64,000 nt of DNA from a virus (IMGVR_UViG_3300019880_000001:1-64000), one strand, 5' to 3'; shown: positions 19,358 through 52,588, counted from the stretch's first letter. A program made the numbers and translations. The notes: a model not told the origin generated them from the sequence alone.

Positions 19358-19612
19358 ATGTCGAACGCAAAAACTGGAGTCTGGAGCGCCATCGGCGCGG
19401 TACTCGGTGGGGCTGCGGGCGTGGCGGCGGGCAACTACGCCGCGCAAATGCGTCCTCGAGTTCGGTACGCGAACGCAGGCCGGAAGCGCAGTCGAGGCCA
19501 GGCCGTCGAAGACGCGATGGTGATGGGCGGCGCCGCTGGCGCTGCGGTCGGCGCGTTCCTCGGTGGGACCATCGCCGGCGAAGACCCCCCTCCGCCGCAG
19601 CTCAAGCGATGA
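19358..19612 (+). CDS. glycine-zipper membrane protein
   Basis: Two GxxxGxxxG hydrophobic segments. Confidence 0.7.
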   Translation: MSNAKTGVWSAIGAVLGGAAGVAAGNYAAQMRPRVRYANAGRKRSRGQAVEDAMVMGGAAGAAVGAFLGGTIAGEDPPPPQLKR

Positions 19613-19696
19613 ACTGGCTGCTCGGGGCGCTTCGAGGCGTCTCGATCTCAGGGTTCCGGTCGAGTCACCACTGGACGGCGCTCGCTTGGGCGGAGC

Positions 19697-20185
19697 TCAA
19701 CGCGGCAAGCGCGGCGGGCGCTTCGGTGGCGGCGGCAAGCTCGGGTCGCGGCGGGAATCGTTAGGGCCCAAGCCCGGAACAACCAGTTCCAGCAACTCAC
19801 GAACCCCCGTCGGAGCCTCGTCCCACTCTATAGGACGATCCGAGCGGCCTCGGTTGATGTGCCCGCGCAGTAGCAAGCTTGCAGTCCGACGCGCGTCTTC
19901 GATTCGAGCTATTCGTTCGTCGCTGAGTTCGCCCTCGAACCTCTCTCGTTGCTTGTCGAGCTTGTCACCGAGGCTTGCGGTTACAGCTTCTTTGGAGGCT
20001 TGCAGCGCTTCGTACTGCTTCTTCTGTTCTTCGATGCGAGCCTCGAGCGCGCCGACTAGCTTCGCGTCTTTCCCGCGCATCATGCCCCACACCGCGCCGA
20101 CGCCGGCGACCGCCATCGTGAGCAAGTATGGCCCTATTCCATGGGTCAGGTCTTGCGCCACGTTCGGTGGAGGCGTGTCGATCAC
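19697..20185 (-). CDS. membrane-anchored coiled-coil protein
   Basis: N-terminal TM followed by a heptad-rich region. Confidence 0.65.
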   Translation of the reverse strand: MIDTPPPNVAQDLTHGIGPYLLTMAVAGVGAVWGMMRGKDAKLVGALEARIEEQKKQYEALQASKEAVTASLGDKLDKQRERFEGELSDERIARIEDARRTASLLLRGHINRGRSDRPIEWDEAPTGVRELLELVVPGLGPNDSRRDPSLPPPPKRPPRLPR

Positions 20186-20655
20186 TCCGGTTCAGGCTCC
20201 GGTAACGTTGCTGGGGGGATGGCTGGAGCGCTGATCCCAAGGTGCTGCTCGATCATGGCGAGCCTGATGCTTAGCGCTTGCTGCTCTGTCGAAAGCTTGT
20301 GCGAGCGGTTCCGAAGCTGACGAAGCCACTTGGCGTGTTCGTCGCCGCGTTTCGCCTCGTCACGAATCAGTTTGGCGTGCTCGTCTCCACGTTGTGTTTC
20401 TCGTTGGTAGTGCTCCGCGATCATGCTTCTGATGTCGTGCACCGCCAACAAGATGCGCTCGTCTCGCTTGTCGATCTGTCCGATCAAGTCCTGACGAAAG
20501 TGACCGAAAACTTCGAGTACGTCTTCCACGCTGGGGGATTTGATCGGTTGGGTCTTCCCGAAACTTTCGGGAGCAGGAACTCCGGCCTCAGTTGTGCGCT
20601 CCCACGGCGGCGGAACCATCTCTTCGATCGAGTCGGGGACGTGTTCGTCGCTCAT
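20182..20655 (-). CDS. coiled-coil protein
   Basis: Begins MSDEHVPDS; duplicated RGDEHAK; coupled to neighbours. Confidence 0.6.
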   Translation of the reverse strand: MSDEHVPDSIEEMVPPPWERTTEAGVPAPESFGKTQPIKSPSVEDVLEVFGHFRQDLIGQIDKRDERILLAVHDIRSMIAEHYQRETQRGDEHAKLIRDEAKRGDEHAKWLRQLRNRSHKLSTEQQALSIRLAMIEQHLGISAPAIPPATLPEPEPE

Positions 20656-21488
20656 GTGTGGCTCGGCTCGATCTGCTGCTTGCGGGGTACGTAATAGACG
20701 ATGAGCGCGCCAACAACCAGCGCGGCCGTGCCTGCGGCGGCGATCCCAGCCCAGTGGAGCGTTTTGGGTAACCCCTTCGCGGTTTCGGTGAGCCCTACGG
20801 TAGTGGCTTCTACCATATCGTGTACTTCTCCGAGCAGCTCGCCTGCGGAGTAGCCGATGAGTTCGATGACACCCTTCGTGGAGATGTAGGACCCCTCGAT
20901 GCGCGCGCGGATCTCCTGTTGGAGGCTGAACGATGGCACGTCCGGGAGATGCAACGGGATGTTCCAGAGCTTCGAGAGCGCGATCAGCTCTTGCGTGTAG
21001 GGGCCGCCGACGCGCATGACGACGTCTTGGTGCCACTTGAGCATCGACGACGCGCCGGCAAGGAGATCGGCGCTCGACTTGTCCTTCCAGGCATTCCACT
21101 GCGTCAGGATGCCGCCCGGGTCCGTGTTGCTCGTACGAATGCGCGCGAGCGACAACGAGGAGCAAAACTCCTGGTTCGCGCTCGGGGGGATCTGAGCTTT
21201 GGTGAAGATGCCCGGCGGACACTGTTTCGTGTCCGGTAGGCTCTCGAGGAGGTCGGCCAAGTTCCGCCAGAGCGCGAGCTGCGCTCCGATGTACGGGTCC
21301 CACTCTTGCCGGTACGCGAGCAAATCTCCGACGTCGCCGACCCCGACGCCACTCAGCCCCGAGTTGAGCGACGGATCGAGCGCGATGACGCGACGGCCGC
21401 CGTAGTAGATCCCCTCTGGTCGGATGATGGGGCACTCTCCGAGCCCCAACACCGGACGGCCACCGAAGGAAACGGTTTCGTTGATCAT
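20652..21488 (-). CDS. putative virion membrane protein (C-terminal TM)
   Basis: N-terminal FGGRPVLGLGE; C-terminal TM followed by PRK. Confidence 0.7.
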   Translation of the reverse strand: MINETVSFGGRPVLGLGECPIIRPEGIYYGGRRVIALDPSLNSGLSGVGVGDVGDLLAYRQEWDPYIGAQLALWRNLADLLESLPDTKQCPPGIFTKAQIPPSANQEFCSSLSLARIRTSNTDPGGILTQWNAWKDKSSADLLAGASSMLKWHQDVVMRVGGPYTQELIALSKLWNIPLHLPDVPSFSLQQEIRARIEGSYISTKGVIELIGYSAGELLGEVHDMVEATTVGLTETAKGLPKTLHWAGIAAAGTAALVVGALIVYYVPRKQQIEPSHT

Positions 21489-21667
21489 CGTTTTTTCTTC
21501 TTTCGAACCTTGTGCGCGACCTCTTCGATGGCCCATCCGGCTGCCGCGCTCACAACGCTCGATGCGATCAACATCGGCCACGGTGACGCCGTCTTCGTGG
21601 TCGGCGGTGAAGGATCGGAGCTTTCACCGAAACCGACTACGGGATGGCCGCCGTAGTGGACGATCAT
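21485..21667 (-). CDS. small membrane protein
   Basis: YGGHPVVGFGE, TM, RKKKKR tail. Confidence 0.65.
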   Translation of the reverse strand: MIVHYGGHPVVGFGESSDPSPPTTKTASPWPMLIASSVVSAAAGWAIEEVAHKVRKKKKR

Positions 21668-22380
21668 GACTTGTCTCGCGCCCACGCCTTGAACATCATG
21701 AGCACACCCATCTCTGGGATGCCTGCGGTTGGTATTTCGGCCACGGACGTCAACGGTGCGGTTACGGGCGCGTCGACCATGTAGCGGTACGCACCAGGAC
21801 CGAGATCATCGTCTTCTGGCCAGTTGGGTGGAAGCAAAGATCCTGGCGGGTACGCGACGGCGTTCAGCTCCGGCTTCGTCGCTGCCGCCGCCTCGAACAT
21901 GCGACTGCCTTGGGCGATGAACTCCGGCGGGAGCGGTATGCCGCTCATCCCTGCGACTGCGACGGCGATCCGTTGTCCGGCTTTGACGGTGCTGTTCGCT
22001 TGGACTGGCTTCCACCCCGACGCCGCCGGCGACGGTGCCGGTGTCGGCACTGGTGTTATCGGTACGGGTGACGGAGAGACTGTCGCCGCCGGCGTCGTCG
22101 ATGTGGGGTTGGCTGCGCGCTCTTTCTTCGCAGCGGTGTTGACGATGTGCATGCCGACAGCGGCTCCGGCTATTACGCCCCCGAAGCCGCCTACGATCGC
22201 GCCGGCAGCCGTTCCGACGCCCGCTTTGATCATTTGCCCGACAACGGTTCCGCCGATCACACCCACGACGAGTCCGACAGCCGGCGCGACGATTATCCCC
22301 TCGAGCAGCGCCTTCTCTCCTTCTTCGTCGCCGAAACCGACAACCGACACACCGTTGAGAGAAATTCGTTCGTGCATCAT
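21664..22380 (-). CDS. glycine-zipper membrane protein with Pro/Thr linker
   Basis: LNGVSVVGFGD, two glycine-zipper TMs, PT-rich linker. Confidence 0.7.
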   Translation of the reverse strand: MMHERISLNGVSVVGFGDEEGEKALLEGIIVAPAVGLVVGVIGGTVVGQMIKAGVGTAAGAIVGGFGGVIAGAAVGMHIVNTAAKKERAANPTSTTPAATVSPSPVPITPVPTPAPSPAASGWKPVQANSTVKAGQRIAVAVAGMSGIPLPPEFIAQGSRMFEAAAATKPELNAVAYPPGSLLPPNWPEDDDLGPGAYRYMVDAPVTAPLTSVAEIPTAGIPEMGVLMMFKAWARDKS

Positions 22381-22796
22381 GACGCGCGTCTCCAGTGAAC
22401 CAATGTGGCAGTGGTCCCTACGGCGAGGCTGATCACCGTGAGGACACCGATCGTGCGGTCCAAACCCGAGCCGGACGGCGGAGCGATACCAGCCCCCTCC
22501 GACGTCCCGCCCGGGAGGTAGATGCCTGCGCTTCGGAAGCAACCCTGCACGAAGTCATTCTTCTCGTCGCGGCCCCAAGCGCGCGGCTCGACACGAATGA
22601 GCGTCGTGACGCCGGGGAGCGGGTAGCTCTCGGTCGCTCCGAGCGGCACGGAAGGATCGGCGACGATGGCTTTCGCGCGCTGCGCTAGAGCGTCCGGAAT
22701 CGGACCGTCTGCGTCAGACCACGTGCGCCACCCATCCGGGGTCGGTACGACCGGACACTGAGCTGCAAGCTGGGATCCGGCGCCGAATTGGGCCAT
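22377..22796 (-). CDS. 'PxGWR' domain protein with C-terminal TM
   Basis: PTPDGWRTW...; C-terminal TM followed by WRRAS. Confidence 0.65.
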   Translation of the reverse strand: MAQFGAGSQLAAQCPVVPTPDGWRTWSDADGPIPDALAQRAKAIVADPSVPLGATESYPLPGVTTLIRVEPRAWGRDEKNDFVQGCFRSAGIYLPGGTSEGAGIAPPSGSGLDRTIGVLTVISLAVGTTATLVHWRRAS

Positions 22797-22879: not shown

Positions 22880-23083
22880 ATGGTAACCCCTGTGAAGATT
22901 CCGACGAAAACCAGATTCGTAGGACTCAAATTTACCCCCGAGCAGCACCGCGAAATAGCGGAACGTGCTGGTCATTCTGGGATTCACTTGAGCGCTTGGA
23001 TGCGATCGATTTTAGTCCAGGCTGCCAACCAGAAGCCACGCAAGGGGTATCTTCGTATTCGCGAGCCAGACGGAGCGACCTGA
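22880..23083 (+). CDS. ribbon-helix-helix DNA-binding protein
   Basis: FVGLKFTPEQHREIAERAGHSGIHLSAWMRSIL (MobC/CopG-like pattern). Confidence 0.75.
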   Translation: MVTPVKIPTKTRFVGLKFTPEQHREIAERAGHSGIHLSAWMRSILVQAANQKPRKGYLRIREPDGAT

Positions 23084-23674
23084 ATGGATCCTCGCAAACT
23101 GATGGGTTTCCAAGTTCCTGGGGACCAGAAGGTGCCCATTCCGGTCCGTGACTGGAATGGGATGAAGCTCGCGCTGTGGCGCAGCAAGACGGCGTGGGAG
23201 ATCGCGGCGCGAGAGGCCGCTACGATCTTGAACCAGTGCGCGCACGCGGACGGCTGCGAAGCCGTGCGGGACGAGACGAGGCCGTGCCGGTCAGACGTCT
23301 ACGCAAGGGACCCTCAGGGTCCCGACGAGACGGATGAGGCGTACGCGCAGCGTCCCGGTGTTCTCGTCCAAAGCGGGTGCCCCGATCGTGAGCGCCGGAT
23401 GAGCGCGCTCGTCATCCTCAACGCCGCGCGCATGTTCGCGCCGGTCGACGTCCGGCGTCCTTCCAGCGAACCGTACTTCGCCCCGAGCCGCGAATACTTC
23501 AGTGAAGTGCTCGCAGAGCTTAGTGCCGCACAGATCGAGCTAGAGGCCCTCCGCGAAGCGCTGCGCGCAGCAGACGTGCCGGTACCCTCACCGCCCGAGC
23601 TCGCGCCGTCTACTCTCACCGAACGCGCACCGCCCCCACAACTACCGCCCGCACCACTCGAGGAGTCACAGTGA
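23084..23674 (+). CDS. hypothetical protein
   Basis: 196 aa ORF abutting the RHH gene. Confidence 0.65.
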   Translation: MDPRKLMGFQVPGDQKVPIPVRDWNGMKLALWRSKTAWEIAAREAATILNQCAHADGCEAVRDETRPCRSDVYARDPQGPDETDEAYAQRPGVLVQSGCPDRERRMSALVILNAARMFAPVDVRRPSSEPYFAPSREYFSEVLAELSAAQIELEALREALRAADVPVPSPPELAPSTLTERAPPPQLPPAPLEESQ

Positions 23675-24042
23675 AATTCGTACCCAGGCGCAACCAAGTC
23701 ATCGGCCGTGTGGTCATCAGACGAACCCTGACGTCGATCGTTTTGGTCGACGAGTCGAAGGTCACGAAGTTCATCTTGATCGACGCGGTCGGCGAGGAAG
23801 CCGCCGCGAACGGAGTCAAGGTCGGTGACGTGATCGTGCCGTTGACGATCAACAACATCATGCTCAACAACGGCTTCCGGCCTGTGCTCGACGAGAAGAA
23901 CATCGCGTTCTTCGTGACGGACATCGCGCCGGGCGAGCTCATGGTTCAGACGGACAGCGGCAGCAAGTACGTCCCACTCGATGCGGAGGACGCGGCGCAA
24001 TCTCTCGGCGCGCCCAGTGTCGACCAAGAAGAGGCAGCTTGA
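23671..24042 (+). CDS. GroES/Cpn10-like co-chaperonin
   Basis: MKFVPRRNQVI..SIVL..IDAVGE..GVKVGDVIV parallels GroES (RPLHDRVI..GIVL..VLAVG..VKVGDIV). Confidence 0.6.
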   Translation: MKFVPRRNQVIGRVVIRRTLTSIVLVDESKVTKFILIDAVGEEAAANGVKVGDVIVPLTINNIMLNNGFRPVLDEKNIAFFVTDIAPGELMVQTDSGSKYVPLDAEDAAQSLGAPSVDQEEAA

Positions 24043-24716
24043 CGTACGGCGCTCGTGACATCATTCGGCGTCAACGCGCCGATTGCGCGTGCGAGACACC
24101 CGCACGCGCACCCGCTCGTGCGTTCGTTCGCGAAAGCGGCGGACGGATCGTACGTCCGCGCGCGTTCATGCGCGCAGAGGTCTTCGAGCGCGCCAAGACT
24201 CACCGGCCGCGCGACGCCGAGCCGATCGTGCTCGCAGGCAAGCCCGGCTCGAAGTGTCGGCCGTTCCTCAAGGTCGAGAAGGACGCCGAGAAGTTCGCAG
24301 CGTGCAACGCGCTCGCCGACGAGCTCGGGCCCCTCAACGAGCCCGAGAAGATGTACCAGATCATCGAAGACGCCATCGGAGATGAGGTCAACGAAGTCTT
24401 CGGCGTTCTGATGCTCGACATCCACTTGCGTTTCAAGGGTCTCGCCGAGACCGGGCGCGGAGAGCCGTCGAGCGTGATGGCGCCTTTGAAGCCGACGCTT
24501 CAGATGGCGCTCATCTCCGGTGCAGATTCGATCGTGTTGTGGCACGTGCACCCCTCCGGGATCGAAGCCGAGCCCAGCGACGCGGACAAGGAAACCACAG
24601 AAGCGTTCGCCGAAGCGTGCGAGGCCATCGACCTGCCGCTACTGGATCACTTGATCATCGGCGGTGACATTCGGAACCGTAGCTACTTCAGTTTCGCAGA
24701 GGACGGCTTACTATGA
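24039..24716 (+). CDS. RadC-like JAB/MPN domain protein with basic N-terminal extension
   Basis: EVFGVLMLD...HVHPSG...PSDAD...LLDHLIIG. Confidence 0.88.
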   Translation: MTYGARDIIRRQRADCACETPARAPARAFVRESGGRIVRPRAFMRAEVFERAKTHRPRDAEPIVLAGKPGSKCRPFLKVEKDAEKFAACNALADELGPLNEPEKMYQIIEDAIGDEVNEVFGVLMLDIHLRFKGLAETGRGEPSSVMAPLKPTLQMALISGADSIVLWHVHPSGIEAEPSDADKETTEAFAEACEAIDLPLLDHLIIGGDIRNRSYFSFAEDGLL

Positions 24717-25123
24717 ACGCGCCCGCCAACAATCAGAGGCGCTTGCCGGCGCCGAACCCGAACTCACCCGTGCTCACTCGGATGATTTCCGATCCGTTCT
24801 TCAACGAGCAGCCCGAAGCGATCACCTGGACGCTCTATGCAGATCACCCGCTCGCGACGGGCATGAAGGTGGTACGGATGTTCGTCAATCACGACGGTGT
24901 CGAAGTGTATTCGGCGCCCGCAGATCCGTCGAGACCATGCCTGCGCAACATCATTCCGATCTCGAAGGTGCGTCTCACCGAAGAATCGATGCCGTTCACC
25001 CTCTTCGCCGAAGAGCTGACCGACGCCGAAACAGAAGAAGACGATGACGACGACGACGAAGATGATCCGGAACCGGAGCCCGGTGAGAGCTCAACGGTCA
25101 CGTCGGGTACCACGTCGTCTTGA
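24713..25123 (+). CDS. hypothetical protein with acidic tail
   Basis: ATGA-coupled; poly-D/E C-terminus. Confidence 0.65.
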   Translation: MNAPANNQRRLPAPNPNSPVLTRMISDPFFNEQPEAITWTLYADHPLATGMKVVRMFVNHDGVEVYSAPADPSRPCLRNIIPISKVRLTEESMPFTLFAEELTDAETEEDDDDDDEDDPEPEPGESSTVTSGTTSS

Positions 25124-25140
25124 AAGCAGGACTTGTCAGA

Positions 25141-26760
25141 ATGTCTCGCGGCAGTAGAAAACGCGAGCAGGACGCAAGCGAGCGCCACTCGGGTGCAGCC
25201 GGCATACCCGCTCAAGAAGACGAAGCCGACATCTTGGAAGAGGTGGGCGGCGAACGCGACGAAGGCGGAGAGCTCATGGTAGACGAGGCGTCTGTCGTGG
25301 CCGTAGGCGCGGTCGACGCCGACAGCGTGCGCACCAATCGGCGCATGGACGCTGTCGTGAAGAAGAAGCGTGGAGGCGAGAAGCACGTCACGTTCAACAC
25401 CGACGACTTGCTCACCATGTACGAGAGCTTGATCAAGGTGTGGGCTCCGAACACGCTCGACATCAGTGTCAGGCGCATGACCGGCTCCGCAGTCACGCGG
25501 GTGATCACCAGCCGTCCTCGATCTGGGGTGGAGCTCTACGAAGCGATCAGGGCCATGCACGGCCTGTGCGAGGAGTCCGAGTACGAGGTCAAGTTCCTCG
25601 ACACCAACCGCAAAATGTATCGCGGCACCGGCCGAATCACGATGCCGGACACGCGCGTTACATCGCCGCAAGGACAATCGCCCATGTACCCGCCGAACGG
25701 TGCGCCTCTAGGATACCCTCCGCCGCAAACGTACCCGCCTCAGCAGGTGCCTCAAGCGGCCCCCGTAGGCGCTCCGCCCGGATCTGATCCGATGGCGATG
25801 ATGCACCAGATGTTTCAACTGTTCCAACAGATGCAAGCGTCGGTGCAACCGCAGTCGCCGTTCCAAGCACCGCAAATGCCGGCAACCGCGCCGGTGTCTT
25901 CACCGCAAGTCGGACCCATGGATCCGATGGCGATGATGAATCAGATGTTTCAGATGTTCCAGCAAATGCAGGGGCAGCAACCCGTGCACGCAGCTCCTCA
26001 GCCCGTAGCGGCGCCGGCGCCTGCTCCGTCGCCGCCAGGAGGGATCGATCAGTTGGCGATGCTGGAGCGGTGCTTCGAGCTCTTCCAGAAAATGCAGCCA
26101 CCGCCGGCGCCGGTTAGCCGTGGGCCGTTCCAGCGCGACCCACGGGCTCCTTACTACCCGCAAGGAGAACGGGCGGGTGGCCCAGAGCGTACCGGCGCAC
26201 CGCAGCAACACCAACCGCCCCAGCGCCCTCCGTCGATGGTCGAGCAGTTCCGCGAATCGATCGGCATCGTGCGTACAGCACGGAGCATGCTCGACGAAAT
26301 GGAAGGGCTGATGCCCGGAAGCTCCCAAGAGGCACCTACGGTGTCGGGCTTGGGCGACGACGATGAGGATAGCCCGATCAAGATCATCGACACCGGCGCC
26401 GGAAAGATCGTCGTCAACAAGCACGACGGCGGCATGCGCCTCTGGGAATCCGGCTTCGCGAACCTGCCCGACATCCTCAAGTGGGGTGGCGAGCAGATCC
26501 AGAAGATCAACAAGACGAACTCCGAGCGCCAACTGCAACAGCAGCAGCCACGACAGCAACTCCCGCCCGGCTACGTCGAGGTGCACCCCGGATACCGCCC
26601 ACCGCCCGGGTACGTGGCGGTCGCAGTCGATCAAGAGCAACCGCAGCAAGAGGAGAGGCTTCCTCCGCCGCCCACGAACTTGCCTCCGCCGATCCATTCG
26701 TCGCCATCGAGGGAAGCGTGGGGCGAGCCAGTGATCACCGATCAAGTCGAGAACGAGTAG
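25141..26760 (+). CDS. Pro/Gln-rich low-complexity protein with three amphipathic repeats
   Basis: DPMAMMHQMFQLFQQMQ, DPMAMMNQMFQMFQQMQ, DQLAMLERCFELFQKMQ. Start uncertain. Confidence 0.75.
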   Translation: MSRGSRKREQDASERHSGAAGIPAQEDEADILEEVGGERDEGGELMVDEASVVAVGAVDADSVRTNRRMDAVVKKKRGGEKHVTFNTDDLLTMYESLIKVWAPNTLDISVRRMTGSAVTRVITSRPRSGVELYEAIRAMHGLCEESEYEVKFLDTNRKMYRGTGRITMPDTRVTSPQGQSPMYPPNGAPLGYPPPQTYPPQQVPQAAPVGAPPGSDPMAMMHQMFQLFQQMQASVQPQSPFQAPQMPATAPVSSPQVGPMDPMAMMNQMFQMFQQMQGQQPVHAAPQPVAAPAPAPSPPGGIDQLAMLERCFELFQKMQPPPAPVSRGPFQRDPRAPYYPQGERAGGPERTGAPQQHQPPQRPPSMVEQFRESIGIVRTARSMLDEMEGLMPGSSQEAPTVSGLGDDDEDSPIKIIDTGAGKIVVNKHDGGMRLWESGFANLPDILKWGGEQIQKINKTNSERQLQQQQPRQQLPPGYVEVHPGYRPPPGYVAVAVDQEQPQQEERLPPPPTNLPPPIHSSPSREAWGEPVITDQVENE

Positions 26761-26951: not shown

Positions 26952-27020
26952 TCGAGCCGAAAAAGCAGACATTGACAACTCGTCTGGACTAGTCCCCGGC
27001 GACGCGCGTACCCTTTGGGG

Positions 27021-28900: not shown

Positions 28901-29147
28901 TAAAACGCGCGTATCCCGATCGTTTAACACGCGCAGATTATTTTCAATCGCGCACTCGCGTTGATCCGACGCCGATCTCCGGATCGACGCACACACGCAA
29001 CCGTTCGTTCCTGTTGGCGTTTTATCCTTACGTGCGATCGGCGCACGAAGAGAGATCGCCTCTGTAACCACGACCGCAGTTCACCGCAATGCGTGTATTG
29101 CTGGACGCTTTGATCTCGTGTTGCGATTCTTATGGACGAACCGTGAC

Positions 29148-30641: not shown

Positions 30642-30643
30642 GA

Positions 30644-30760: not shown

Positions 30761-30778
30761 ATCAGGAGAAGAGAAGTC

Positions 30779-33384: not shown

Positions 33385-33385
33385 A

Positions 33386-41081: not shown

Positions 41082-42202
<1,121 letters not shown>

Positions 42203-42206
<4 letters not shown>

Positions 42207-44010: not shown

Positions 44011-44627
44011 CAGAGAACCCCCCGCACGGCACTGTATGCACGCCCAAAGCACCCGTCATGCGAGAGCACGGTGACGTCGCCCCCGGACCAGTTCTCGTTG
44101 CTCCCCTCGTCCAGCCACTCGTCCAAGCTAGACGCGGTGAGCATATGTGGGTGGCCGTCGTGAGGCGGAAGATCAATCCACTCGAAGATGCGAACTCGTC
44201 GCCCGAGCGTCATCGCGTTTCGAATGATCAGCTTCGGGTCTTCGACGTGCTGGAGGCAATTGTAGATCCACACCTCATCGAAAGGCTTGTGCCCCCCATC
44301 GAGAACGTTCTGGAAACGCTCGATCACGGTCTCGCCTGGGTCGTGCAGAGCCTCGATACCGGTCATGGCGTACCGCAAGTAGACCCACGCCGGATACTGC
44401 AACGGGTCGGTCACGACACGCCTCTTGGCCCCTCGAGTCTTCAAGAGCATCGAGGCGGGCCCCGCGCCGATGTCCAAGATGTGAGAGTGCTCCGGTACCA
44501 CGAAATCCCAGTGCTGGCGCTTGATCCCCATGAGAGAAGCGTACACGTAGTGCTTGCGCTCCTCGTAGAAGGTGTTGCTGCAATCCCCCCAAAAAGCCGC
44601 CTCAAAGTCCTGCGCCGGGTTTCCCAT
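44010..44627 (-). CDS. class I SAM-dependent methyltransferase
   Basis: ILDIGAGP, FDEVWIYNCLQHVEDP. Confidence 0.85.
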   Translation of the reverse strand: MGNPAQDFEAAFWGDCSNTFYEERKHYVYASLMGIKRQHWDFVVPEHSHILDIGAGPASMLLKTRGAKRRVVTDPLQYPAWVYLRYAMTGIEALHDPGETVIERFQNVLDGGHKPFDEVWIYNCLQHVEDPKLIIRNAMTLGRRVRIFEWIDLPPHDGHPHMLTASSLDEWLDEGSNENWSGGDVTVLSHDGCFGRAYSAVRGVL

Positions 44628-44703: not shown

Positions 44704-45258
44704 ATGGCGCGTCGAATCCCCTGGAAAGCCATTGCGATAGGCGGTGCCGTCGCTGGGGGTGTCAGCGCTATTGTACTTGCCAGCCGCAAAAAGCTTCCCT
44801 CGTCTTTGCCGGCCCGGCGCGTGGCGCTCATCGGAGACTCGTACGCGGTAGGGCTCGGGCCGGAGCTCCAAAAGCTCCTCCCCGACTTCAAATATGAGGG
44901 GCACGTTGGGAACACCACTGCGGCGTGGGCTGCGCACAGCGCAAGCTGCGGCACGTGCGGCGACTGGCTCACGACGTTCAAGCCCGACGTCGTGCTCGTG
45001 TCTCTCGGAGTCAACGACGGCGTCTCGCCGAACCGAAAGAACTACAACGACATCGTGAGCGCGCTGCACGGCATCGGTGCTCGAGTTGTTTGGATCGAAC
45101 CTCCGGCAGGTGTCATCATCCCGGCGATACGCGCCGCTATCACCTCGCTCGGCGTGACGACGGTGCCTCCCACTCAAACACCTCTCGCCGGCGACGGACT
45201 GCATCCGCAAAGCTACGGACCGTGGGCTCAAGAAGTCTTCCAGGCGGTGCGCCAATGA
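44704..45258 (+). CDS. membrane-anchored SGNH/GDSL hydrolase
   Basis: N-terminal TM; LIGDSY, SLGVND, DGLHP. Confidence 0.88.
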   Translation: MARRIPWKAIAIGGAVAGGVSAIVLASRKKLPSSLPARRVALIGDSYAVGLGPELQKLLPDFKYEGHVGNTTAAWAAHSASCGTCGDWLTTFKPDVVLVSLGVNDGVSPNRKNYNDIVSALHGIGARVVWIEPPAGVIIPAIRAAITSLGVTTVPPTQTPLAGDGLHPQSYGPWAQEVFQAVRQ

Positions 45259-45488
45259 TGCTCAACGGACGCCCGACGATCGGGTTCGGAGACGAGCACA
45301 CCGTCCCGCCGCTAGAGCTCCGTACGGCCTACACCGTGAAGGGGCTCGGCATCGGCGCCGGGGGACTCATCGGTTACCTCACCTTCGGGCCCTTGGGGAT
45401 GGTTCTCCTTGGAGGCGCCGGCTGGTACGTGGGCAACCGCGTCGCCGTCAACGCCGAGAAGAAATTCGTAGAAGGACAACACACATGA
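45255..45488 (+). CDS. small glycine-rich membrane protein
   Basis: LNGRPTIGFGD followed by TM segments. Confidence 0.65.
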   Translation: MMLNGRPTIGFGDEHTVPPLELRTAYTVKGLGIGAGGLIGYLTFGPLGMVLLGGAGWYVGNRVAVNAEKKFVEGQHT

Positions 45489-47305
45489 GGATCATCGGCA
45501 GAGGACGTTACGTCTACGGAACGTACCCAACGACAAGCGCGTCGGCAACGAGCGGGCCCCCCAGCGGCCCCGCCGGCGGAGACCTGGGGGCTACGTACCC
45601 AGACCCAACCGTCGTGGCGCTCGAGGAAACGAGCACGCCGGCGAGGCTCGCGATCGGCGCAATCCCAGACGGCGAATTGCTCATGCGTTCGGGGCTGGCG
45701 GTCATCGGCGCAGGCGCCGCCATGGGAGCCGCCATCACAGTGCGTCGGATCAGCGACAGCAACCTTGGCGGCACGAAGCTGGTCGACATAGCGACCACCA
45801 GCCTACGCGACGGCACGATCTCGTGGGTCTACAGCGTCGGAGCCCTCTTTCAGCTCGTGAAAGCGCCGAGCGCGGCACTTCTCGCGGCGGTCGACGGGAT
45901 CACCGTCGTCGCGTCTACCGCAACCGCAGGATCCGTGTGGGTACGTCTCGAGGCCACGGCAAACCAGCGGTTTGGGGTCGAGCCGCCGCTCTTCATCGAT
46001 CCTTCCGCCGGCAGCGACGACAACGACGGACTCCTCGTCGGAAACCCACTCAAGAGCGCCGACGAATGGTCCCGCCGAACCAACGGCGTCACCATGCTCG
46101 CGTCTTTCACGGTCACCTGCGCCGCCGGCGACGTCGGTAGCTTCTTCGGCAAACAATACTTCGACAACCGCAGCACAGCGGTCACGATCAGCATCGTCGG
46201 CACGAAGAGCCTCAGCGCTACCATGACGGTCTCTTCGATCACGCCGGAGAACAGCGCACCCGGAGTACAACAAGAATTCTGGATGGTAAAAACCGGAGGT
46301 CCGGTGCTCACCGGCGCGGAGCGACTTCGGATACTTACGAGTTCTATTCCGGCGAACGTCGGAGCCACAGGATGCGTGCGGGGGTTCGAGGGAAGCGATC
46401 CGACGCATCCGTATACCTCCACGTGGAGCAACGGCGCGACCTCACTGGCAAACCTCTTCCCCGCTGCGGGCGACACGTTCGCGGTCGAGACACTGCTCAC
46501 CACGTTCCGCGCGGACGACATGGACACGCGCAACATCGGCCAAGGTTGCATCCTGTCGTTCATCGACATGGTTCATCCGGCGACCACCAGCGTACCTGGC
46601 ATCTCCCCAAGCTCCAACAACGCGCGCGTTACCCCGTCGGGGGACCACCTGTTCATCTCGTGCATCTTCGGCACCACAGGGGGCGGGATCGTTCGTATCG
46701 ACAACGATCAGCTCTGGTTCCGCGGATGCGAGTTCAAGTCGCAAGTCCATTTCGTTGGCGGCGGCCCCTCAGGAATCGTGGCCTATCAATGCACGTTCCG
46801 TGTAGGCGCGGTCATAAATTGTTCGTTCTCTCAAACAGGATGCGTATTCGAAGGTGTCACCTCGACCGCCACTTTCTGGTCCAACACCGGAGACGCCCTG
46901 TTCTCGCGCATCACAGGCACCGCGTTCGGGGTGGGAGGCGTGTTTGCAACTGTCCTAGGCAGAGTTTGGACGCCGCTCGCCGGAGCTCGCAGCGCGGTGA
47001 CGATTGGAATCAGCGTCTCCACCGGCGGTACCCTGAACTCCCAAACGTTCGCGCAGATCAACGATAGTATTTCAGCATCAACGGGCGCCATAGTCATGAA
47101 CGGGATCGTCGTACACGGGTACACCGTCGATCCGAACGCGAATTCTCGCGTGCAGTCGGTCAACACCACGATAGGTGCGCTGATCTACATTCACGACATC
47201 GCTGGAGATCCGGTGAACCCACCCGTGTCGGGGTGCTTCCAATACTCAGTCGCCGGGCAAATGCGTCTGATGAATCCCGCCGGGGTTGTCACACCACTCA
47301 ACTGA
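45485..47305 (+). CDS. spike-like protein C (IGRGRY tag, pectin-lyase-like beta-helix)
   Basis: MRIIGRGRYVYGTYP; AGGDLGATYPDPTV; FIDPSAGSDDNDGL...PLKS; repeated C-x-F turns. Confidence 0.75.
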   Translation: MRIIGRGRYVYGTYPTTSASATSGPPSGPAGGDLGATYPDPTVVALEETSTPARLAIGAIPDGELLMRSGLAVIGAGAAMGAAITVRRISDSNLGGTKLVDIATTSLRDGTISWVYSVGALFQLVKAPSAALLAAVDGITVVASTATAGSVWVRLEATANQRFGVEPPLFIDPSAGSDDNDGLLVGNPLKSADEWSRRTNGVTMLASFTVTCAAGDVGSFFGKQYFDNRSTAVTISIVGTKSLSATMTVSSITPENSAPGVQQEFWMVKTGGPVLTGAERLRILTSSIPANVGATGCVRGFEGSDPTHPYTSTWSNGATSLANLFPAAGDTFAVETLLTTFRADDMDTRNIGQGCILSFIDMVHPATTSVPGISPSSNNARVTPSGDHLFISCIFGTTGGGIVRIDNDQLWFRGCEFKSQVHFVGGGPSGIVAYQCTFRVGAVINCSFSQTGCVFEGVTSTATFWSNTGDALFSRITGTAFGVGGVFATVLGRVWTPLAGARSAVTIGISVSTGGTLNSQTFAQINDSISASTGAIVMNGIVVHGYTVDPNANSRVQSVNTTIGALIYIHDIAGDPVNPPVSGCFQYSVAGQMRLMNPAGVVTPLN

Positions 47306-47308: not shown

Positions 47309-48013
47309 ATGCAGATCGAAACCTCACTGCTCGCGCTCCCTGGAATCGGCACCGTCACGCCGACGTTCCTGTGCTCGCTCGTGGGCATGGCCGTGCGCCA
47401 CGGTTGGGATCCGAACGGCATCGCGCTCGTCATCAGCGAAGAGAGCCTCTTCAACCCCTCCGCGAAGAACCCCCACAGCTCGGCCAGCGGCCTGATCCAG
47501 TTCATCGATTCGACGGCAGCGTCCCTCGGGACTACGACCGCCCAGATCCGCGCCATGAGTGCCGAAGAGCAACTCCCGCTCGTGGAACGCTTCTTCCAGA
47601 CGAGCCTCAACGGGAAAATCCCCGCTCGCATCGAAGACTATTTTCTCTCGGTGCTCGGGCGCCCCGATCTCATCGGGAAACCAGACGACACGCCGGTCTT
47701 CGTCAGAGGTTCGGGCGGCTACGCCGGCAACCCACAGATCGACATCGGCGGGGACGGCGTCATCACGGTCGGCGACACGCGCGCGTACATGCAGCGAGTG
47801 CTCCAACGGGCGAAAGGCACGGTCGGCACTTACCCCGCGATCTGTTACGAGAACGTCACGGCGCCTTCGACGCGAAGCAACGGCACGCTTGCTGCTTTTG
47901 CGCTCGGTACGATCATGGCCGCTGTGGGGTACGGCACCTACAAGGTGTTGAGCGCGTTGAGCCCGAGACCAGAATCCACGGCTCTACCGCCGCCGGCTTT
48001 CAGGCGCACATGA
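47309..48013 (+). CDS. lytic transglycosylase (SLT-like) with C-terminal TM
   Basis: ISEESLFNPSAKNP.SSASGLIQF; D.GGDGVITVGD; TM near the C-terminus. Confidence 0.85.
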   Translation: MQIETSLLALPGIGTVTPTFLCSLVGMAVRHGWDPNGIALVISEESLFNPSAKNPHSSASGLIQFIDSTAASLGTTTAQIRAMSAEEQLPLVERFFQTSLNGKIPARIEDYFLSVLGRPDLIGKPDDTPVFVRGSGGYAGNPQIDIGGDGVITVGDTRAYMQRVLQRAKGTVGTYPAICYENVTAPSTRSNGTLAAFALGTIMAAVGYGTYKVLSALSPRPESTALPPPAFRRT

Positions 48014-48459
48014 CGAACAAGACGCTCCTCTGGCTCTCGGCAGGCGGAGCCGCCGCGGGGGCCGCCATCCTCCTCTGGAAAAGGACGGGAGTGGATGTAC
48101 CCACAACTCCGTCCATTCCTGTGGCAGCGCCCGGCGAGGCCACGAAAGTCACGCTCGCGGTACCCGCAGGTTGGCGTCGCGTCACCGGATCCGAAGTGTC
48201 CGCGCTCCCCGAGCTCGCATCGCAAGCGAACTCGCTCATGAACACGCCGGGTTTCACGTCGATGCGGTACGGAACGCTCGCCCCGTTCGTAGCTTCCGAT
48301 GGCAACACGTACGCGACGTGGATCGAACAGCACTACCATGAGCCGGGTGGCTCTACGAAGCTGTGGGGGCTACACCATGGGGTGACGGTACTAGCCCAAG
48401 CGAGCGCGCCCTCGGTTCTCGCCGACGAGTGGCCCGGCGTCAGACGTGGAAGCACATGA
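48010..48459 (+). CDS. membrane-anchored 'PAGWRR' domain protein
   Basis: N-terminal TM; VPAGWRRV...DGNTY..IEQH...HHGVTVL. Confidence 0.7.
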   Translation: MTNKTLLWLSAGGAAAGAAILLWKRTGVDVPTTPSIPVAAPGEATKVTLAVPAGWRRVTGSEVSALPELASQANSLMNTPGFTSMRYGTLAPFVASDGNTYATWIEQHYHEPGGSTKLWGLHHGVTVLAQASAPSVLADEWPGVRRGST

Positions 48460-49040
48460 TCCTCCGCCCCAATATTCTCACCAAGCACACTTCGTTCGAG
48501 GTACTGCGCGCCTACAGCATCGCGCACGTTCGCGTGTTCACAACGCCCATCACCGGCACGCTCGCCGAGATGCTCACCGCGTGGAGTGCGTTCGAGACCT
48601 GGTTTTGGAAACTCTGTCACGACGACAATCTCACGAACATGCGCGGCACGTGGCGAGGCAACGGTACGACGTTCAAAGCGAGCGAGATCGACGCGCACGG
48701 CAAGGAGATCTTCTTGCCCCCGAGCGCGACGAACGTCTTTCGCGCCTACACGGACTCCCCCGGAGTGCCGGCAATAGTCGCCTCCGCTGAGGACAACATC
48801 CGTTTCGTCGGTACGGCGAGCAACCCCAGCGTGCGCCCGAATCGTTACCAAGAAGCGTGGGATGCGGCCCAGCGAGGCGACGTCGAAGGCTTCGTGATGG
48901 GGCTCGCGGAACCGAAGCTCCCCGGCGTCGAACACGTGCCCGGCTTCTTCACCGCGAACCCGCGCGTGTACCTAGCGGGGGTGCAGCATTGCCTCGACAC
49001 GCTCAGGCCCGACTTCGATACGTACGAAAGAGCACCGTGA
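48456..49040 (+). CDS. glucosaminidase/FlgJ-like muramidase
   Basis: AFETWF..DNLTNMRG..FRAYTD..RYQEA..FFTANPRVY resembles GH73 motifs. Confidence 0.6.
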   Translation: MILRPNILTKHTSFEVLRAYSIAHVRVFTTPITGTLAEMLTAWSAFETWFWKLCHDDNLTNMRGTWRGNGTTFKASEIDAHGKEIFLPPSATNVFRAYTDSPGVPAIVASAEDNIRFVGTASNPSVRPNRYQEAWDAAQRGDVEGFVMGLAEPKLPGVEHVPGFFTANPRVYLAGVQHCLDTLRPDFDTYERAP

Positions 49041-49243
49041 TCGCGCGATTGATCTGCTTGCTCCTCGGGCATTCACTCGATGAGCTCGCGGTGCTCGAGG
49101 GAGCCCAACCCCCTATCTACGTGACGCACGGCAGGTGCGCTCGGTGCAAGACGCCCGTCATCACGGTGCGTGATCTTCGCGACGAAAAAGACCAGCAAGC
49201 GGACGTCGATACGGTCGACGAGCGCTCAGACCGGTTGAAGTAG
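49037..49243 (+). CDS. small protein (LICLLLGH..CARC)
   Basis: Resembles DUF1660-like prophage Zn-binding peptides. Confidence 0.5.
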   Translation: MIARLICLLLGHSLDELAVLEGAQPPIYVTHGRCARCKTPVITVRDLRDEKDQQADVDTVDERSDRLK

Positions 49244-49786
49244 GCTCGTGAGCGGCTGAACGAGCCCGGCGCCGCTGAGACGTCTGCACTGTAGGGCGTT
49301 CGGCGCCGGAAGATCGTTCACCAAGTCGGCTTGGCTGAGGTAGGTCAACCGCACTACCGGAACGGACGGCAGTGCCACAGAGAATACGGTAGCCGCGCTG
49401 AAAACCTCAGCGGCGCCTGCGGGGTTGCTGTTGAAAACACACGAGACCGGCGGTCCGGAGCCGCCGTCAATGTAGTTCCAAGTTGTGCCGCCGTCCAAAC
49501 TCACTTCGACACGTATTACGAGATTGATCGAGCCTGCTTGTGAGCTCGCTATCGTGAACACGAGAGCTCCGTCTAGAACATCGTCCGCTTCCCAGTCGGT
49601 GAACGTGATGACGACGTTTCCGCCCACACCCGGCACCGGTGTGAAGTCGCCCACCGGATCCAAGTTGCCTGAAGCGGTGTAGGCCGTTCCGTACTGCAAC
49701 AGCAACGGGTCACTGCCGCCTGCCGCAGCGGGCTTCTCTGGGTACGTTTCGGTCGCGTACCGGCCTCTGCCCATGAGCCTGCTCAT
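49226..49786 (-). CDS. spike-like protein D (GRGRY tag), inverted orientation
   Basis: [16 protein letters not shown] followed by a beta-rich domain (VEVSLDGGTTW). Confidence 0.75.
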   Translation of the reverse strand: MSRLMGRGRYATETYPEKPAAAGGSDPLLLQYGTAYTASGNLDPVGDFTPVPGVGGNVVITFTDWEADDVLDGALVFTIASSQAGSINLVIRVEVSLDGGTTWNYIDGGSGPPVSCVFNSNPAGAAEVFSAATVFSVALPSVPVVRLTYLSQADLVNDLPAPNALQCRRLSGAGLVQPLTSLLQPV

Positions 49787-49895: not shown

Positions 49896-51245
49896 ATGAC
49901 CCTGTCCTATGCGCCGTACCCGCAGGCAGTAGCCGGATCACTCGGAGACGTGGGGCTCGGCGTGTTGACGTACCCGTCGTGGATCCCGCAGACCTGCAAA
50001 AACTGTAGCGACTCCACGCTGGCGCGTTGGAAGGCCCAGATAGCTTTCGCGATGGGCTGGTACGACATTTTTCGCAACCTAGAGAAGTTTCCGACCCCCG
50101 CTCAAGCGGAACGTTTCAAACGGTTCGGTACGTACGGGAAACCCGAGTTCGCCATGGACCCGAACAACGCGTTCTGGGCTTCAACTCCTGAGCGCGTCGC
50201 AGACCACGCAGACATCGTGAGGCAAGCTCTGCGTCACGGCTCTTTTCACTCGAGCACGTCGTTCGATCCCGGCGGGGCTATCAAGAGCGCCATCAACACG
50301 GTCACGCACATCCCCGTCATGTCGTTGGTGAACCCCATCGACGCCGTCGTGCACAAGATCGTCGGGGACAAGGTGTACTACGCCGTCGCGAAAGCCATCG
50401 GTGGCGACAAGGTCGAAGCCGCATTGAAAGCCGGCAACCATTCGCTCTCCGATCTCTCGAAAGGATCGACGCGCGCCGAGCTCATAAATCAAGGTGTAGC
50501 GGTCGCCAAGACGGCGGTTCAGGAGAAACTCACCCCCGATCAGGTGAAGGCGGTGCTCGATTCGTTGCCTCCGGAGACCGCTCAGGCGGCTCGAGACGCA
50601 CTCGCCGGCAAGAACCCCGCGAGCGCGCCGGCGGCCCCCGCAGCCGCCCCCGCGCCGGCTCAACTACGGACGCTCGACCCGCCCAAGCGGCCCGCGGCGG
50701 CGCCTGCGCCCGCTCCCTTGAAGACGCTCGACCCCCCGAAGAGGCCAGCAGCCGCAGCGGCACCGGCCCCTTTGAAGACGCTCGATCCTCCCAAGAAGGC
50801 GCCGGTGGCTCCGGCGAAGACGGTTTCGGCAACCGTGGTCGCGCCTGCCGCGCCGGGCGCTTTCGTGTACGCCCCCTACCCGAAAAACGGCGCTCTCGGG
50901 GCGCCTCCGCCGCACGGAGGGCACGGACACGGCGGGGGAGGTCATCACGGGGGAGGCCACGGAGGAGGGCACGTACACCCCTTCGCTCGAGGCGGCGGCG
51001 GAGGCCGAGGGTGGCGCGGCGGTCCGTGGGACTACGAGGTCATCACGACGGTCGAGACCTGCCGCACGTGGGGCGATCCGATCGACATGATGCCGGTGGA
51101 GATGTTGACCGCGGTGCGGACGGTGCTCGGCACCTCCGGCGGACGCCCGACGACCATTCGCGGGCCAGACGGTGTTCTTTACCTGATCGCGATCGAAGGC
51201 AAAGCCGTTACGGCTCGGCCGTGCATCGCTGTCGCCGCAAGCTAG
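49896..51245 (+). CDS. putative virion protein with Pro/Ala repeats and a Gly/His tract
   Basis: 3x APA(P/Q)L(K/R)TLDPPK; GGHGHGGGGHHGG; YAPYP occurs twice. Confidence 0.7.
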   Translation: MTLSYAPYPQAVAGSLGDVGLGVLTYPSWIPQTCKNCSDSTLARWKAQIAFAMGWYDIFRNLEKFPTPAQAERFKRFGTYGKPEFAMDPNNAFWASTPERVADHADIVRQALRHGSFHSSTSFDPGGAIKSAINTVTHIPVMSLVNPIDAVVHKIVGDKVYYAVAKAIGGDKVEAALKAGNHSLSDLSKGSTRAELINQGVAVAKTAVQEKLTPDQVKAVLDSLPPETAQAARDALAGKNPASAPAAPAAAPAPAQLRTLDPPKRPAAAPAPAPLKTLDPPKRPAAAAAPAPLKTLDPPKKAPVAPAKTVSATVVAPAAPGAFVYAPYPKNGALGAPPPHGGHGHGGGGHHGGGHGGGHVHPFARGGGGGRGWRGGPWDYEVITTVETCRTWGDPIDMMPVEMLTAVRTVLGTSGGRPTTIRGPDGVLYLIAIEGKAVTARPCIAVAAS

Positions 51246-51273
51246 TCGCCGACACGAAAGAAGAAAGAAGCAT

Positions 51274-51867
51274 ATGAAGAAGTGGTTCTCGTTTGTCGCA
51301 TTTGCCCTCGCCATCGTGGCTATTTCCTCGATCGCAACCGCGGACGGACCCCCGTTCACGATCACGACATTCCACTCCTTCGCGACGCTCACGCCGACCA
51401 GTGTGACGCCGACTGTATGCAAACACTCGGATGGTACGTACACGAACGTACACATTTTGAGTCAGGGGCCGATCACTTCAAACGATCAGCGAATGGTCGG
51501 AACGTTTCACGGCGATGCGATGATCTTGACGAACGCTCAGGGAATCGGCGTGTCACGAGATAAGTGGACCATCACCGACACGGCCACCGGTGCCGTCAAA
51601 GTAACGGGGGTGGCGCAGGCTCTCGACGCGGACGCAACAGGCCCGATCCACTCGGTGGTCACCGCGCGTTTTTCAGACGGCAGTTTCATGTCGACCATGG
51701 CCGTCGTTAGATTGCCTCCTCCCGGCGTTCCAGGCGCGATCACTGTGGAGTACGGCGGCGCTGTACCGTCCGATCCCGGACGCGGTGTCGTGATCAGTCG
51801 AGACTGCGGCGGGTACTTCGAAGCTGACGCGCGTGGGTACAAGATTCGCGGCGCCGGCGGCGATTGA
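51274..51867 (+). CDS. secreted beta-rich protein
   Basis: Signal peptide MKKWFSFVAFALAIVAISSIATA. Confidence 0.7.
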   Translation: MKKWFSFVAFALAIVAISSIATADGPPFTITTFHSFATLTPTSVTPTVCKHSDGTYTNVHILSQGPITSNDQRMVGTFHGDAMILTNAQGIGVSRDKWTITDTATGAVKVTGVAQALDADATGPIHSVVTARFSDGSFMSTMAVVRLPPPGVPGAITVEYGGAVPSDPGRGVVISRDCGGYFEADARGYKIRGAGGD

Positions 51868-51877
51868 ATCGACTCCA

Positions 51878-52324
51878 ATGGCCCAAAAAACAGATCTTCC
51901 AGGCTGGTTCCCGTTCGCCGTCGTGGCCTCATTCCTCGTGATGGTCGGCGCCGGCATGAAATCGGGCTGGAAGATCTCCGGCAACGAGCCCCCGCCCCCT
52001 CCCCCTCCGATACCACCGGGAACGCCGCAAGTGAAGCAGGCGGGCGCTCTGCAAGACTGGGGGCTCGGTTCGTCGGGCAGGTGGTTCTTCTGGTACGTGC
52101 TCCCCGTCGGAGCGACCGCGTACGGTGCGAAGGGCCCCGAGTACCTGACCGATCAAGGCGCGTTTCAGCTCGAGTTCGACACGCGCTCCGCATCGCTCGG
52201 AGTGCAGCTCTACCGTTACGTGTGGATTCCAGCGCTAGGAGTATGGGTCTACGACTCGCGCAACGAGCCTTCGCTCCTAGCATCGCGTGAAATACGCGAT
52301 CAGCAGGGCGCCGTAGTCGGATAA
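51878..52324 (+). CDS. membrane-anchored protein
   Basis: N-terminal TM and poly-Pro linker. Confidence 0.6.
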   Translation: MAQKTDLPGWFPFAVVASFLVMVGAGMKSGWKISGNEPPPPPPPIPPGTPQVKQAGALQDWGLGSSGRWFFWYVLPVGATAYGAKGPEYLTDQGAFQLEFDTRSASLGVQLYRYVWIPALGVWVYDSRNEPSLLASREIRDQQGAVVG

Positions 52325-52375
52325 CGGGGCAATTCGCCTCGCCCTCTCAGGCCGGAGCGAGGCTACGCTTCGAAG

Positions 52376-52588
52376 ATGCTCGCACTCCTTTTCAGCCTGC
52401 TCGTGCTCGCCATTCTGATTTGGGGTGGCGATCGACTGCTCGCGCTCGCGCCAGGTTCTCCGAAGCTCATAGCGGCAATCCGCATCATCGCGATCGTGTG
52501 TGTTGCGCTCTACGTGCTCTCGCTGATCGCCGGCTTCTTCGGCGTAGCGGTGCCTCTGTTTCCTACCGTCGTCCGTAGTCGGCATTGA
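52376..52588 (+). CDS. small two-TM protein (holin-like candidate)
   Basis: 70 aa and almost entirely hydrophobic. Confidence 0.6.
   Translation: MLALLFSLLVLAILIWGGDRLLALAPGSPKLIAAIRIIAIVCVALYVLSLIAGFFGVAVPLFPTVVRSRH

Follow-up and report, generated by a model that had tools for sequence, protein, structure and literature searches.

Tailless viruses with an internal membrane include the Sphaerolipoviridae and Matsushitaviridae (Helvetiavirae: HHIV-2, HCIV-1, SH1, and the Thermus phage P23-77), in which adjacent genes encode upright single-jelly-roll capsid proteins of different sizes and a single-jelly-roll vertex protein is the site where spikes dock. The Tectiviridae (PRD1 and PR772), STIV, and the iridoviruses are likewise tailless with an internal membrane, and they have membrane-associated transglycosylases and vertex spikes. 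PRD1 has a genome of about 15 kb, which is replicated by protein priming, and a packaging ATPase. To our knowledge, nearly every bacterial virus described with a genome larger than about 30 kb is a tailed phage with an HK97 capsid and a terminase. Here, we examined positions 19358 to 52588 of the IMG/VR virus record IMGVR_UViG_3300019880_000001, in a window of 64,000 nucleotides covering the initial 64 kb of one 83,913-bp contig, to which CheckV assigns 100% completeness. We consider it probable that this region is the particle-building module of a tailless double-stranded DNA (dsDNA) virus of soil bacteria, with a genome of ~84 kb that is probably circular, and that the virus belongs to a widespread lineage for which we found no published description. 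We infer an internal membrane and taillessness from gene content.

Capsid candidates and gene content of the module

The contig carries no terminal repeat itself and is collinear with, and a circular permutation of, its closest relative, G001 (111,461 bp, with direct terminal repeats). An element of more than 64 kb had been proposed in the initial annotation of the window; the size does exceed 64 kb and is corrected here to 83.9 kb, as a circular permutation of this 111-kb relative. The analyzed genome (G000) was compared whole with G001 (111 kb), G002 (109 kb), G003 (117 kb), and the distant relative G004 (79.6 kb, with a 127-bp terminal repeat), all four of which are rated complete and two of which carry terminal repeats. 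The GC content is 62%, and coding frames can be told apart by their third-position GC. A block dominated by orphan genes occupies 19.4 to 52.6 kb. Between 22880 and 42934 every gene lies on the plus strand, mostly with start and stop codons overlapping by 1 to 4 bp; beyond 42934, short minus-strand insertions are followed by plus-strand genes up to 52588. The strand run and the overlaps bear out the initial description of about 33 kb of tightly coupled genes.

Three conserved proteins encoded near the middle of this block are the capsid candidates.

30779-32095 (+), major capsid protein candidate of 438 amino acids (aa) with a jelly-roll fold
32174-32773 (+), HNH endonuclease (PHROG 1035, E = 3.7e-12)
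32779-33384 (+), second conserved beta-rich protein, 201 aa from the ATG (third-position GC, 0.87)
33386-34276 (+), 296-aa jelly-roll protein, candidate vertex (penton) protein

The 438-aa gene has the strongest codon bias in the window, with the highest third-position GC (0.90), and its stop codon is followed immediately by a terminator-like hairpin of 16 bp, GC-rich and with a T-run (32119-32154), an arrangement consistent with extra-high expression of that single gene. Its product is represented in metagenomes by more than 400 clusters at 90% identity (65 to 86% identical, on contigs of 60 to 160 kb), by 173 clusters at 50% identity, and by 31 IMG/VR loci. From an 80-sequence alignment of relatives reaching down to 22% identity, AlphaFold2 produced a model consisting almost entirely of beta-strands (pLDDT 88, pTM 0.85). 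Foldseek searches of PDB and BFVD with this model and with that of the 296-aa protein returned nothing at E ≤ 0.001, and the weak rows below significance were jelly-roll capsid proteins. The nearest structures to the 438-aa protein were the jelly-roll capsid proteins of PRD1/PR772, iridovirus, STIV, SPV1, Faustovirus, and FLiP, with PRD1/PR772 P3 as the top neighbor; the HHIV-2 penton and an HCIV-1 chain were also among them. Because nearly all alignments place model residues ~50 to 415 against only one barrel of the target, we interpret the protein as a single jelly roll carrying large insertions and not as a canonical double jelly roll. HK97 capsid, portal, and tail-tube structures were missing from the listed neighbors of the two models, an absence that covers these models and does not rule out such folds elsewhere in the genome.

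We read the modeled fold as a jelly-roll sandwich and not as HK97 or tail-tube-like. The initial annotation had named a tail or HK97 fold of 30779-32095 as an outcome that would refute a tailless virus; the fold found is this sandwich, and its neighbors are capsids of membrane-containing viruses. Because of its codon bias, the hairpin, and its exceptional conservation, we take the 438-aa protein for a capsid protein rather than a fiber or receptor-binding protein, and as a candidate it behaves like a major capsid protein. A tblastn search of 50,697 phage records found no match to it, and a family profile search of PDB sequences gave chance matches only. The leads from the ESM Atlas (polyomavirus VP1 and geminivirus coat, 0.85 to 0.86) lay under the useful threshold and were discarded.

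The 201-aa gene is present in all five genomes and in 33 related loci at a median identity of 71%, and its product is likely a small or second capsid component, judging from sequence. The Atlas record of this protein begins at residue 4 of a longer open reading frame (ORF); the Atlas matches were confined to the protein's own unnamed family, and the closest cluster with a name (PF18628 P2_N, 0.76) was at chance level and was rejected. Complex prediction for the 438-aa and 201-aa proteins scored 0.00, below the mark, which is evidence neither way. For the 296-aa protein, the top structural neighbor was the HHIV-2 penton. The capsid subunits of HHIV-2 are labeled A-X and a, and its penton protein is the product of gene 22, with the first 40 residues missing from the map (PMC6414509). 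Since the 174-aa product of gene 22 fits residues 39 to 173 of chain b, we identify chain b as the penton protein, and the 296-aa protein is therefore a candidate vertex protein, an assignment for which the structural score is suggestive and not decisive. The 201-aa and 296-aa genes come after the capsid gene in every related locus. Paralogy among the three proteins was considered and rejected for want of sequence support (hhalign probabilities <1%), and hhalign likewise gave no match between the three families and P23-77 VP16 or VP17 or the HHIV-2 penton. The HNH endonuclease gene interrupts the capsid operon between the 438-aa and 201-aa genes; because it is missing from 34 of 34 related loci, we regard it as a mobile insertion with a recent, homing-type look and not as part of the virion.

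The remainder of the module is rich in candidate membrane, core, and fiber proteins.

27015-28247 (+), LysM-type cell-wall binder with a membrane helix at the C terminus and a polybasic tail (from sequence and hydropathy)
28244-28900 (+), predicted transglutaminase-core (papain-like) cysteine protease or transglutaminase (Pfam Transglut_core, E = 1.5e-5)
29331-30641 (+), protamine-like protein
34497-34730 and 34727-34945 (+), small membrane or glycine-zipper proteins
34942-35655 (+), membrane-anchored protein with a polybasic tail
35655-37133 (+), membrane-anchored LysM and PG_binding_1 protein with a polybasic tail (PG_binding_1, E = 1.3e-14; LysM, E = 1.1e-4)
37140-38081 (+), small proteins of the spike/fiber cluster
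38085-39260 and 39274-40503 (+), GRGRY-tagged proteins
40500-40835 (+), conserved two-helix membrane protein (hydropathy)
41082-42206 (+), GRGRY-tagged collagen-like protein (Pfam Collagen, E = 2.7e-16)
42203-42934 (+), concanavalin-like lectin (Laminin_G_3, E = 8.8e-6, just under the cutoff)
45255-45488, small glycine-zipper protein
45485-47305, 606-aa GRGRY-tagged spike
47309-48013, membrane-anchored SLT transglycosylase (Pfam SLT, E = 8.8e-8)
49226-49786 (-), GRGRY-tagged protein
51274-52588, small membrane proteins (hydropathy)

By Kyte-Doolittle hydropathy, 17 of the 41 module ORFs contain one or more hydrophobic 19-mers, a small number of them probably false positives from beta-rich proteins; two to three further glycine-zipper proteins can be added, so that the initial count of more than 15 transmembrane or glycine-zipper genes is about right. 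Its other entries fared similarly: the membrane-tethered cell-wall proteins correspond to the LysM, LysM plus PG_binding_1, and SLT proteins listed above, the spikes to five GRGRY-tagged fiber or spike proteins, and the protamine-like protein to an ORF open from 29118 whose likely start is the ATG at 29331, behind AAGGAAGAGAAG, a good ribosome-binding site. This last protein has an Arg/Lys-rich N-terminal half, after which come hydrophobic helices rich in glycine and three DSPY repeats; it is kept in G001 to G003 and is a candidate membrane-tied, DNA-condensing core protein. Three proteins of the module join a cell-wall-binding ectodomain, a single membrane helix, and a polybasic tail, and the LysM-anchor protein (27015-28247) is found in 31 related loci. 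The five fiber or spike proteins begin with a shared tag, M..I/M-GRGRY-A/V-T/Y-..-YP. The Transglut_core match (25.7 bits against a cutoff of 23) belongs to a gene present in all five genomes that starts with GTG, overlapping the stop codon of the preceding gene, and its Cys, His, and Asp appear, by eye, to be placed as for a catalytic triad.

When all module ORFs of at least 200 aa were scanned against Pfam and PHROG, family matches were few, and none was to a terminase, portal, HK97 capsid, tape measure, sheath, or baseplate family; the initial annotation had recognized no tailed-phage genes there either. The same scans of the remaining ORFs of at least 300 aa on the 83.9-kb contig found none of these families. 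In six-frame hidden Markov model searches of the five genomes, which gave positive matches in control genomes, neither Pfam Terminase_6N and TerL_ATPase nor Phage_portal nor Phage_capsid (HK97) matched at E ≤ 1, the portal result being, like the others, sequence-based. A TerL, portal, or HK97 gene elsewhere on the element, cited initially as evidence that would count against the proposal, was thus found neither there nor in the four complete relatives. Besides replication and recombination genes, the final 20 kb of the contig encodes only a rhomboid protease and an Ig-like-domain protein. The latter has a weak match to a PHROG "major tail protein" (E = 8.7e-4), which we read as a domain match because it covers the same stretch as a sub-threshold Pfam Big_2 match.

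Comparison of all ORFs showed that the three capsid genes, the transglutaminase-like gene, and genes for a RadC-like JAB protein, a D12 methyltransferase, and a DUF7768 protein are common to all five genomes. G000 to G003 also share the 546-aa Pro/Gln-rich, LysM-anchor, protamine-like membrane, and two polybasic-tail anchor proteins, together with a 65-aa protein, the two-helix membrane protein, a tyrosine recombinase, and a 517-aa Thr/Ala-rich protein. The PolA/VapE/primase arm, in contrast, occurs only in G000 and G001, the others carrying sets of UvrD, ResIII or DEAD helicases, nucleases, and ParB. A morphogenesis block that stays fixed while replication blocks are exchanged is the pattern of a capsid-defined virus lineage. 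The more than 400 capsid clusters show that the lineage is widespread. Our search of the literature, limited to one library, found no published description of it, in line with the initial suggestion that it might be undescribed.

Genome packaging and competing explanations

The initial annotation had reported no Walker A motif in the module. This holds inside the module, but one P-loop ATPase lies just outside it.

53980-55941 (-), HerA/FtsK-type P-loop ATPase, 653 aa, 1.4 kb beyond the module (Walker A, GRTGSGKT)

It matches Pfam DUF87 (E = 1.1e-6), PDB HerA chains (E = 2e-10), and PHROG 2666 (E = 9e-21), a family labeled large terminase subunit in the head-and-packaging category and the source of the sole "terminase" label we obtained. 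Such matches would be expected if the element were a known PRD1-type (double-jelly-roll) or sphaerolipovirus-type virus whose HerA/FtsK-type ATPase pumps the genome into a preformed, membrane-lined capsid, and the top structural neighbors of the 438-aa and 296-aa proteins point the same way. The distribution of the ATPase, however, argues against this explanation. In G001 (G001:C1:14589-15812, L038) it is shortened to 331 aa by deletion of the C-terminal 240 residues, all that remains in G003 is a 213-aa open frame containing the Walker A region, and no match was found in G002 or G004, so that it is missing from two of the four complete relatives, one of them with terminal repeats. A tailed phage equipped with a terminase and a portal of its own encodes a homologue with 30% identity. 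The P-loop ORFs that remain in the five genomes encode SF1/UvrD helicases, SF2 helicases, and Sak4-like proteins, and PHROG scans of the G004 module ORFs gave only an integrase match.

On this distribution, the HerA-type ATPase is best described as an accessory gene, and we set it aside as the packaging motor because it is not conserved in the lineage. With the ATPase missing or shortened in relatives and the remaining P-loop ORFs accounted for by helicases and Sak4-like proteins, the lineage appears to lack a conserved motor of either known kind; the FtsK/HerA-type packaging ATPase of the Helvetiavirae and Bamfordvirae (Varidnaviria) is not a conserved gene in it. Similarity in sequence to the capsid proteins of P23-77 and HHIV-2 was likewise not found, and we consider assignment to a known PRD1-type or sphaerolipovirus-type group unlikely.

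Slightly less likely still is a very divergent tailed phage whose hallmark genes have drifted past recognition and whose jelly-roll proteins are decoration, fiber, or baseplate parts. Automatic taxonomy does attach Uroviricota labels to look-alike clusters of the 201-aa protein, and many module ORFs lie outside structure prediction. Against this stand the failure of TerL, normally the easiest tailed-phage gene to detect, to match in any of the five genomes; the P-loop ORFs of these genomes, which are only helicases, Sak4-like, and HerA-like; the lack of a conserved ORF with portal-like size and composition; and the jelly-roll fold of the most conserved and strongest expressed-looking gene, which is unlike fibers and decoration proteins. 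A large plasmid or integrative element whose membrane, cell-wall, and fiber genes build a surface or transfer apparatus is the least plausible alternative, improbable even with the tyrosine recombinase, the HerA/TrwB-like ATPase, the sub-threshold NikA-like protein, the ParB of G004, and membrane proteins and cell-wall hydrolases that are also typical of conjugation systems, given that family scans found no VirB4, coupling-protein, or relaxase families, that the HerA-type ATPase is not conserved, that the universal gene set includes two jelly-roll proteins with viral capsid and vertex proteins as nearest structures, and that phage-type replication modules are swapped around a fixed capsid module.

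Several points weigh against the tailless-virus interpretation that we favor. What is said here of the particle, its lipids, the host, and expression comes from gene sequences. No sequence-level link of the capsid candidates to known capsid families was found, structure prediction among the three candidates covers the 438-aa and 296-aa proteins only, and the 296-aa model is weak (pLDDT 66, pTM 0.66). For an icosahedral dsDNA virus this large, the apparent lack of a conserved packaging ATPase is also unusual, and how the genome is loaded is left without explanation. The initial proposal of a tailless, membrane-containing virus is therefore retained in part: the absence of hallmark genes and the jelly-roll fold speak for it, whereas the alignment of only one jelly roll, the lack of a conserved FtsK/HerA ATPase, and the reading of membrane and taillessness from gene content limit the support.

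Neighboring genes, flanks, and source of the genome

The following genes complete the module and its flanks.

15926-16777, D12 adenine methyltransferase
19358-19612 (+), 20652-21581 (-), 21664-22542 (-), and 22377-22796 (-), small glycine-zipper/membrane proteins of the left edge (hydrophobic segments, GxxxGxxxG)
22880-25123 (+), five coupled early-morphogenesis genes
22880-23083 (+), ribbon-helix-helix-like protein (NikA-like match below the curated cutoff)
23084-23674, 23671-24042, and 24713-25123 (+), conserved unknowns
24039-24716 (+), RadC-like JAB/MPN protein (PHROG 10276, E = 1.5e-25; present in 5/5 genomes)
25120-26760 (+), 546-aa protein with a long Pro/Gln-rich low-complexity center (from sequence)
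42931-44052 (-), glycosyltransferase family 1 (Pfam Glycos_transf_1, E = 6.8e-17)
42931-44627 (-), glycosyltransferase plus methyltransferase-like gene, inside the spike cluster
48363-49040, gene of the right part of the module
49896-51245, 449-aa protein
56399-57469 (-), tyrosine recombinase (Pfam Phage_integrase, E = 5.3e-8)
57629-59182 (+), conserved 517-aa Thr/Ala/Pro-rich protein (41 to 71% identity in G001 to G003)
59851-60450 (-), DUF7768 protein

The left-edge genes (19358-22796) had no Pfam or PHROG match and are kept mainly in G001. The 546-aa protein had no Pfam or PHROG family match and no tblastn match among the 50,697 phage records; it is kept in G001 to G003 and in 25 related loci, and it may be a scaffold or assembly factor. 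The glycosyltransferase and methyltransferase-like pair sits beside the collagen-like and lectin-like proteins and is missing from all four relatives; these genes may modify the fibers. No family match was found for the 517-aa protein. It is 28% identical to the product of L034:2602-3552, a gene that lies ~7 kb away from the capsid gene of the distant relative G004, and may be a further particle protein encoded outside the module.

Family scans of the flanks identified a sigma-70 factor, SF1 and SNF2 helicases, the D12 methyltransferase, ThyX, the tyrosine recombinase, and PolA, as the initial annotation had listed for sigma factor, PolA, ThyX, helicases, and a Cre-like recombinase, and in addition an exonuclease, a Sak4-like ATPase, a PD-(D/E)XK nuclease, and a VapE-type primase-helicase. 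The tyrosine recombinase was seen in all five genomes, in G004 through a PHROG integrase match. One 876-aa ORF that runs past the end of the window (contig 62570-65200, minus strand; L001:570-3200) encodes the family A DNA polymerase together with a uracil-DNA glycosylase-superfamily domain at its N terminus. A rhomboid-family intramembrane protease is encoded at contig 82768-83379 (L002:8768-9379, minus strand) and is also present in G001 and G002. The 64-kb window contains no tRNA genes.

Sampled words from the capsid region (29000-34300) were fully present in two sequencing runs from one soil metagenome sample, and no RNA run was among the runs containing them. A bacterial host is indicated by the sigma-70 factor, by the LysM, PG_binding, and SLT domains, and by the coupled start and stop codons. 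Short contigs binned with a Candidatus Binatia genome (L003, L005) and a Polyangiaceae genome (L004) carry relatives of the capsid gene, at best a weak lead to the host; because binning of viral contigs is unreliable, we did not assign a host from these bins.

Proposed particle and comparison with known viruses

Our working model of the particle is as follows. The 438-aa protein would form the main shell block, with the 296-aa protein at the vertices and the 201-aa protein as the likely second shell component. An internal membrane would bear proteins whose polybasic tails, together with the protamine-like domain, hold the condensed genome, and outward-facing LysM, PG_binding, and SLT domains would handle the cell wall at entry or exit. 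The transglutaminase-like cysteine enzyme could process or cross-link particle proteins, and the five fibers or spikes would attach at the vertices through their N-terminal GRGRY tag. Since a packaging motor is not conserved, we propose that the genome is enclosed by co-assembly around protein-condensed circular DNA, which is the least certain step, and that the conserved tyrosine recombinase reduces replication products to single circles. Taken further, the model would describe a new high-rank group of bacterial viruses with genomes of 80 to 125 kb, a jelly-roll shell over an inner membrane, and a protamine-condensed circular genome enclosed without a motor, a proposal that we put forward tentatively and with more doubt than confidence.

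If this model is true, the size range of tailless prokaryotic viruses is extended several-fold, these being by far the largest such viruses, and the way in which 84 to 117 kb of DNA is enclosed without a terminase or an FtsK/HerA pump becomes a testable question. The lineage is common in soil, with genomes of 80 to 125 kb, and its conserved capsid gene is a marker by which these viruses can be counted. Virus-classification pipelines currently seem to call them tailed phages or leave them unclassified.

Compared with the Helvetiavirae, whose genomes are 17 to 31 kb, this genome is 84 kb and those of its relatives are 80 to 117 kb, and its main capsid protein has 438 aa against 232 to 291 aa, with no sequence similarity found between them. 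The Helvetiavirae infect halophilic archaea or Thermus, whereas the hosts here would be soil bacteria, and they keep an annotated putative packaging ATPase (encoded beside the capsid genes in P23-77), whereas none is conserved here. The double-jelly-roll viruses differ in that a single jelly roll aligns in the 438-aa protein, and PRD1 differs in that replication here relies on PolA and a primase-helicase instead of protein priming. The genome is three to six times larger than those of the sphaerolipovirus-type and PRD1-type groups, and membership in either fails on the conserved packaging ATPase and, as regards capsid architecture, is no more than possible.

The Portogloboviridae (SPV1) also have a jelly-roll capsid over a membrane. 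SPV1 encloses a circular, protein-condensed genome, reportedly by co-assembly, and is not known to encode a packaging ATPase, and our co-assembly model resembles this arrangement; SPV1, however, has an archaeal host and a genome of ~20 kb, shares no sequence similarity with the virus described here, and gave structural scores within background. We know of motor-less assembly around a condensed genome only from one small archaeal virus and small eukaryotic DNA viruses. Adenovirus offers an analogy that implies no homology, with an arginine-rich condensing protein encoded beside a cysteine protease and a capsid gene. Adenovirus fiber tails dock on the penton base through a short N-terminal motif, and by analogy the shared N-terminal motif of the fibers here could dock on the vertex protein. 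The initial annotation had called the gene inventory typical of tectiviruses and sphaerolipoviruses; of the two, the sphaerolipovirus type fits better. The packaging ATPase that defines both groups is not conserved here. In working logic, the closest described counterpart would be the sphaerolipovirus type, with the PRD1 type next.

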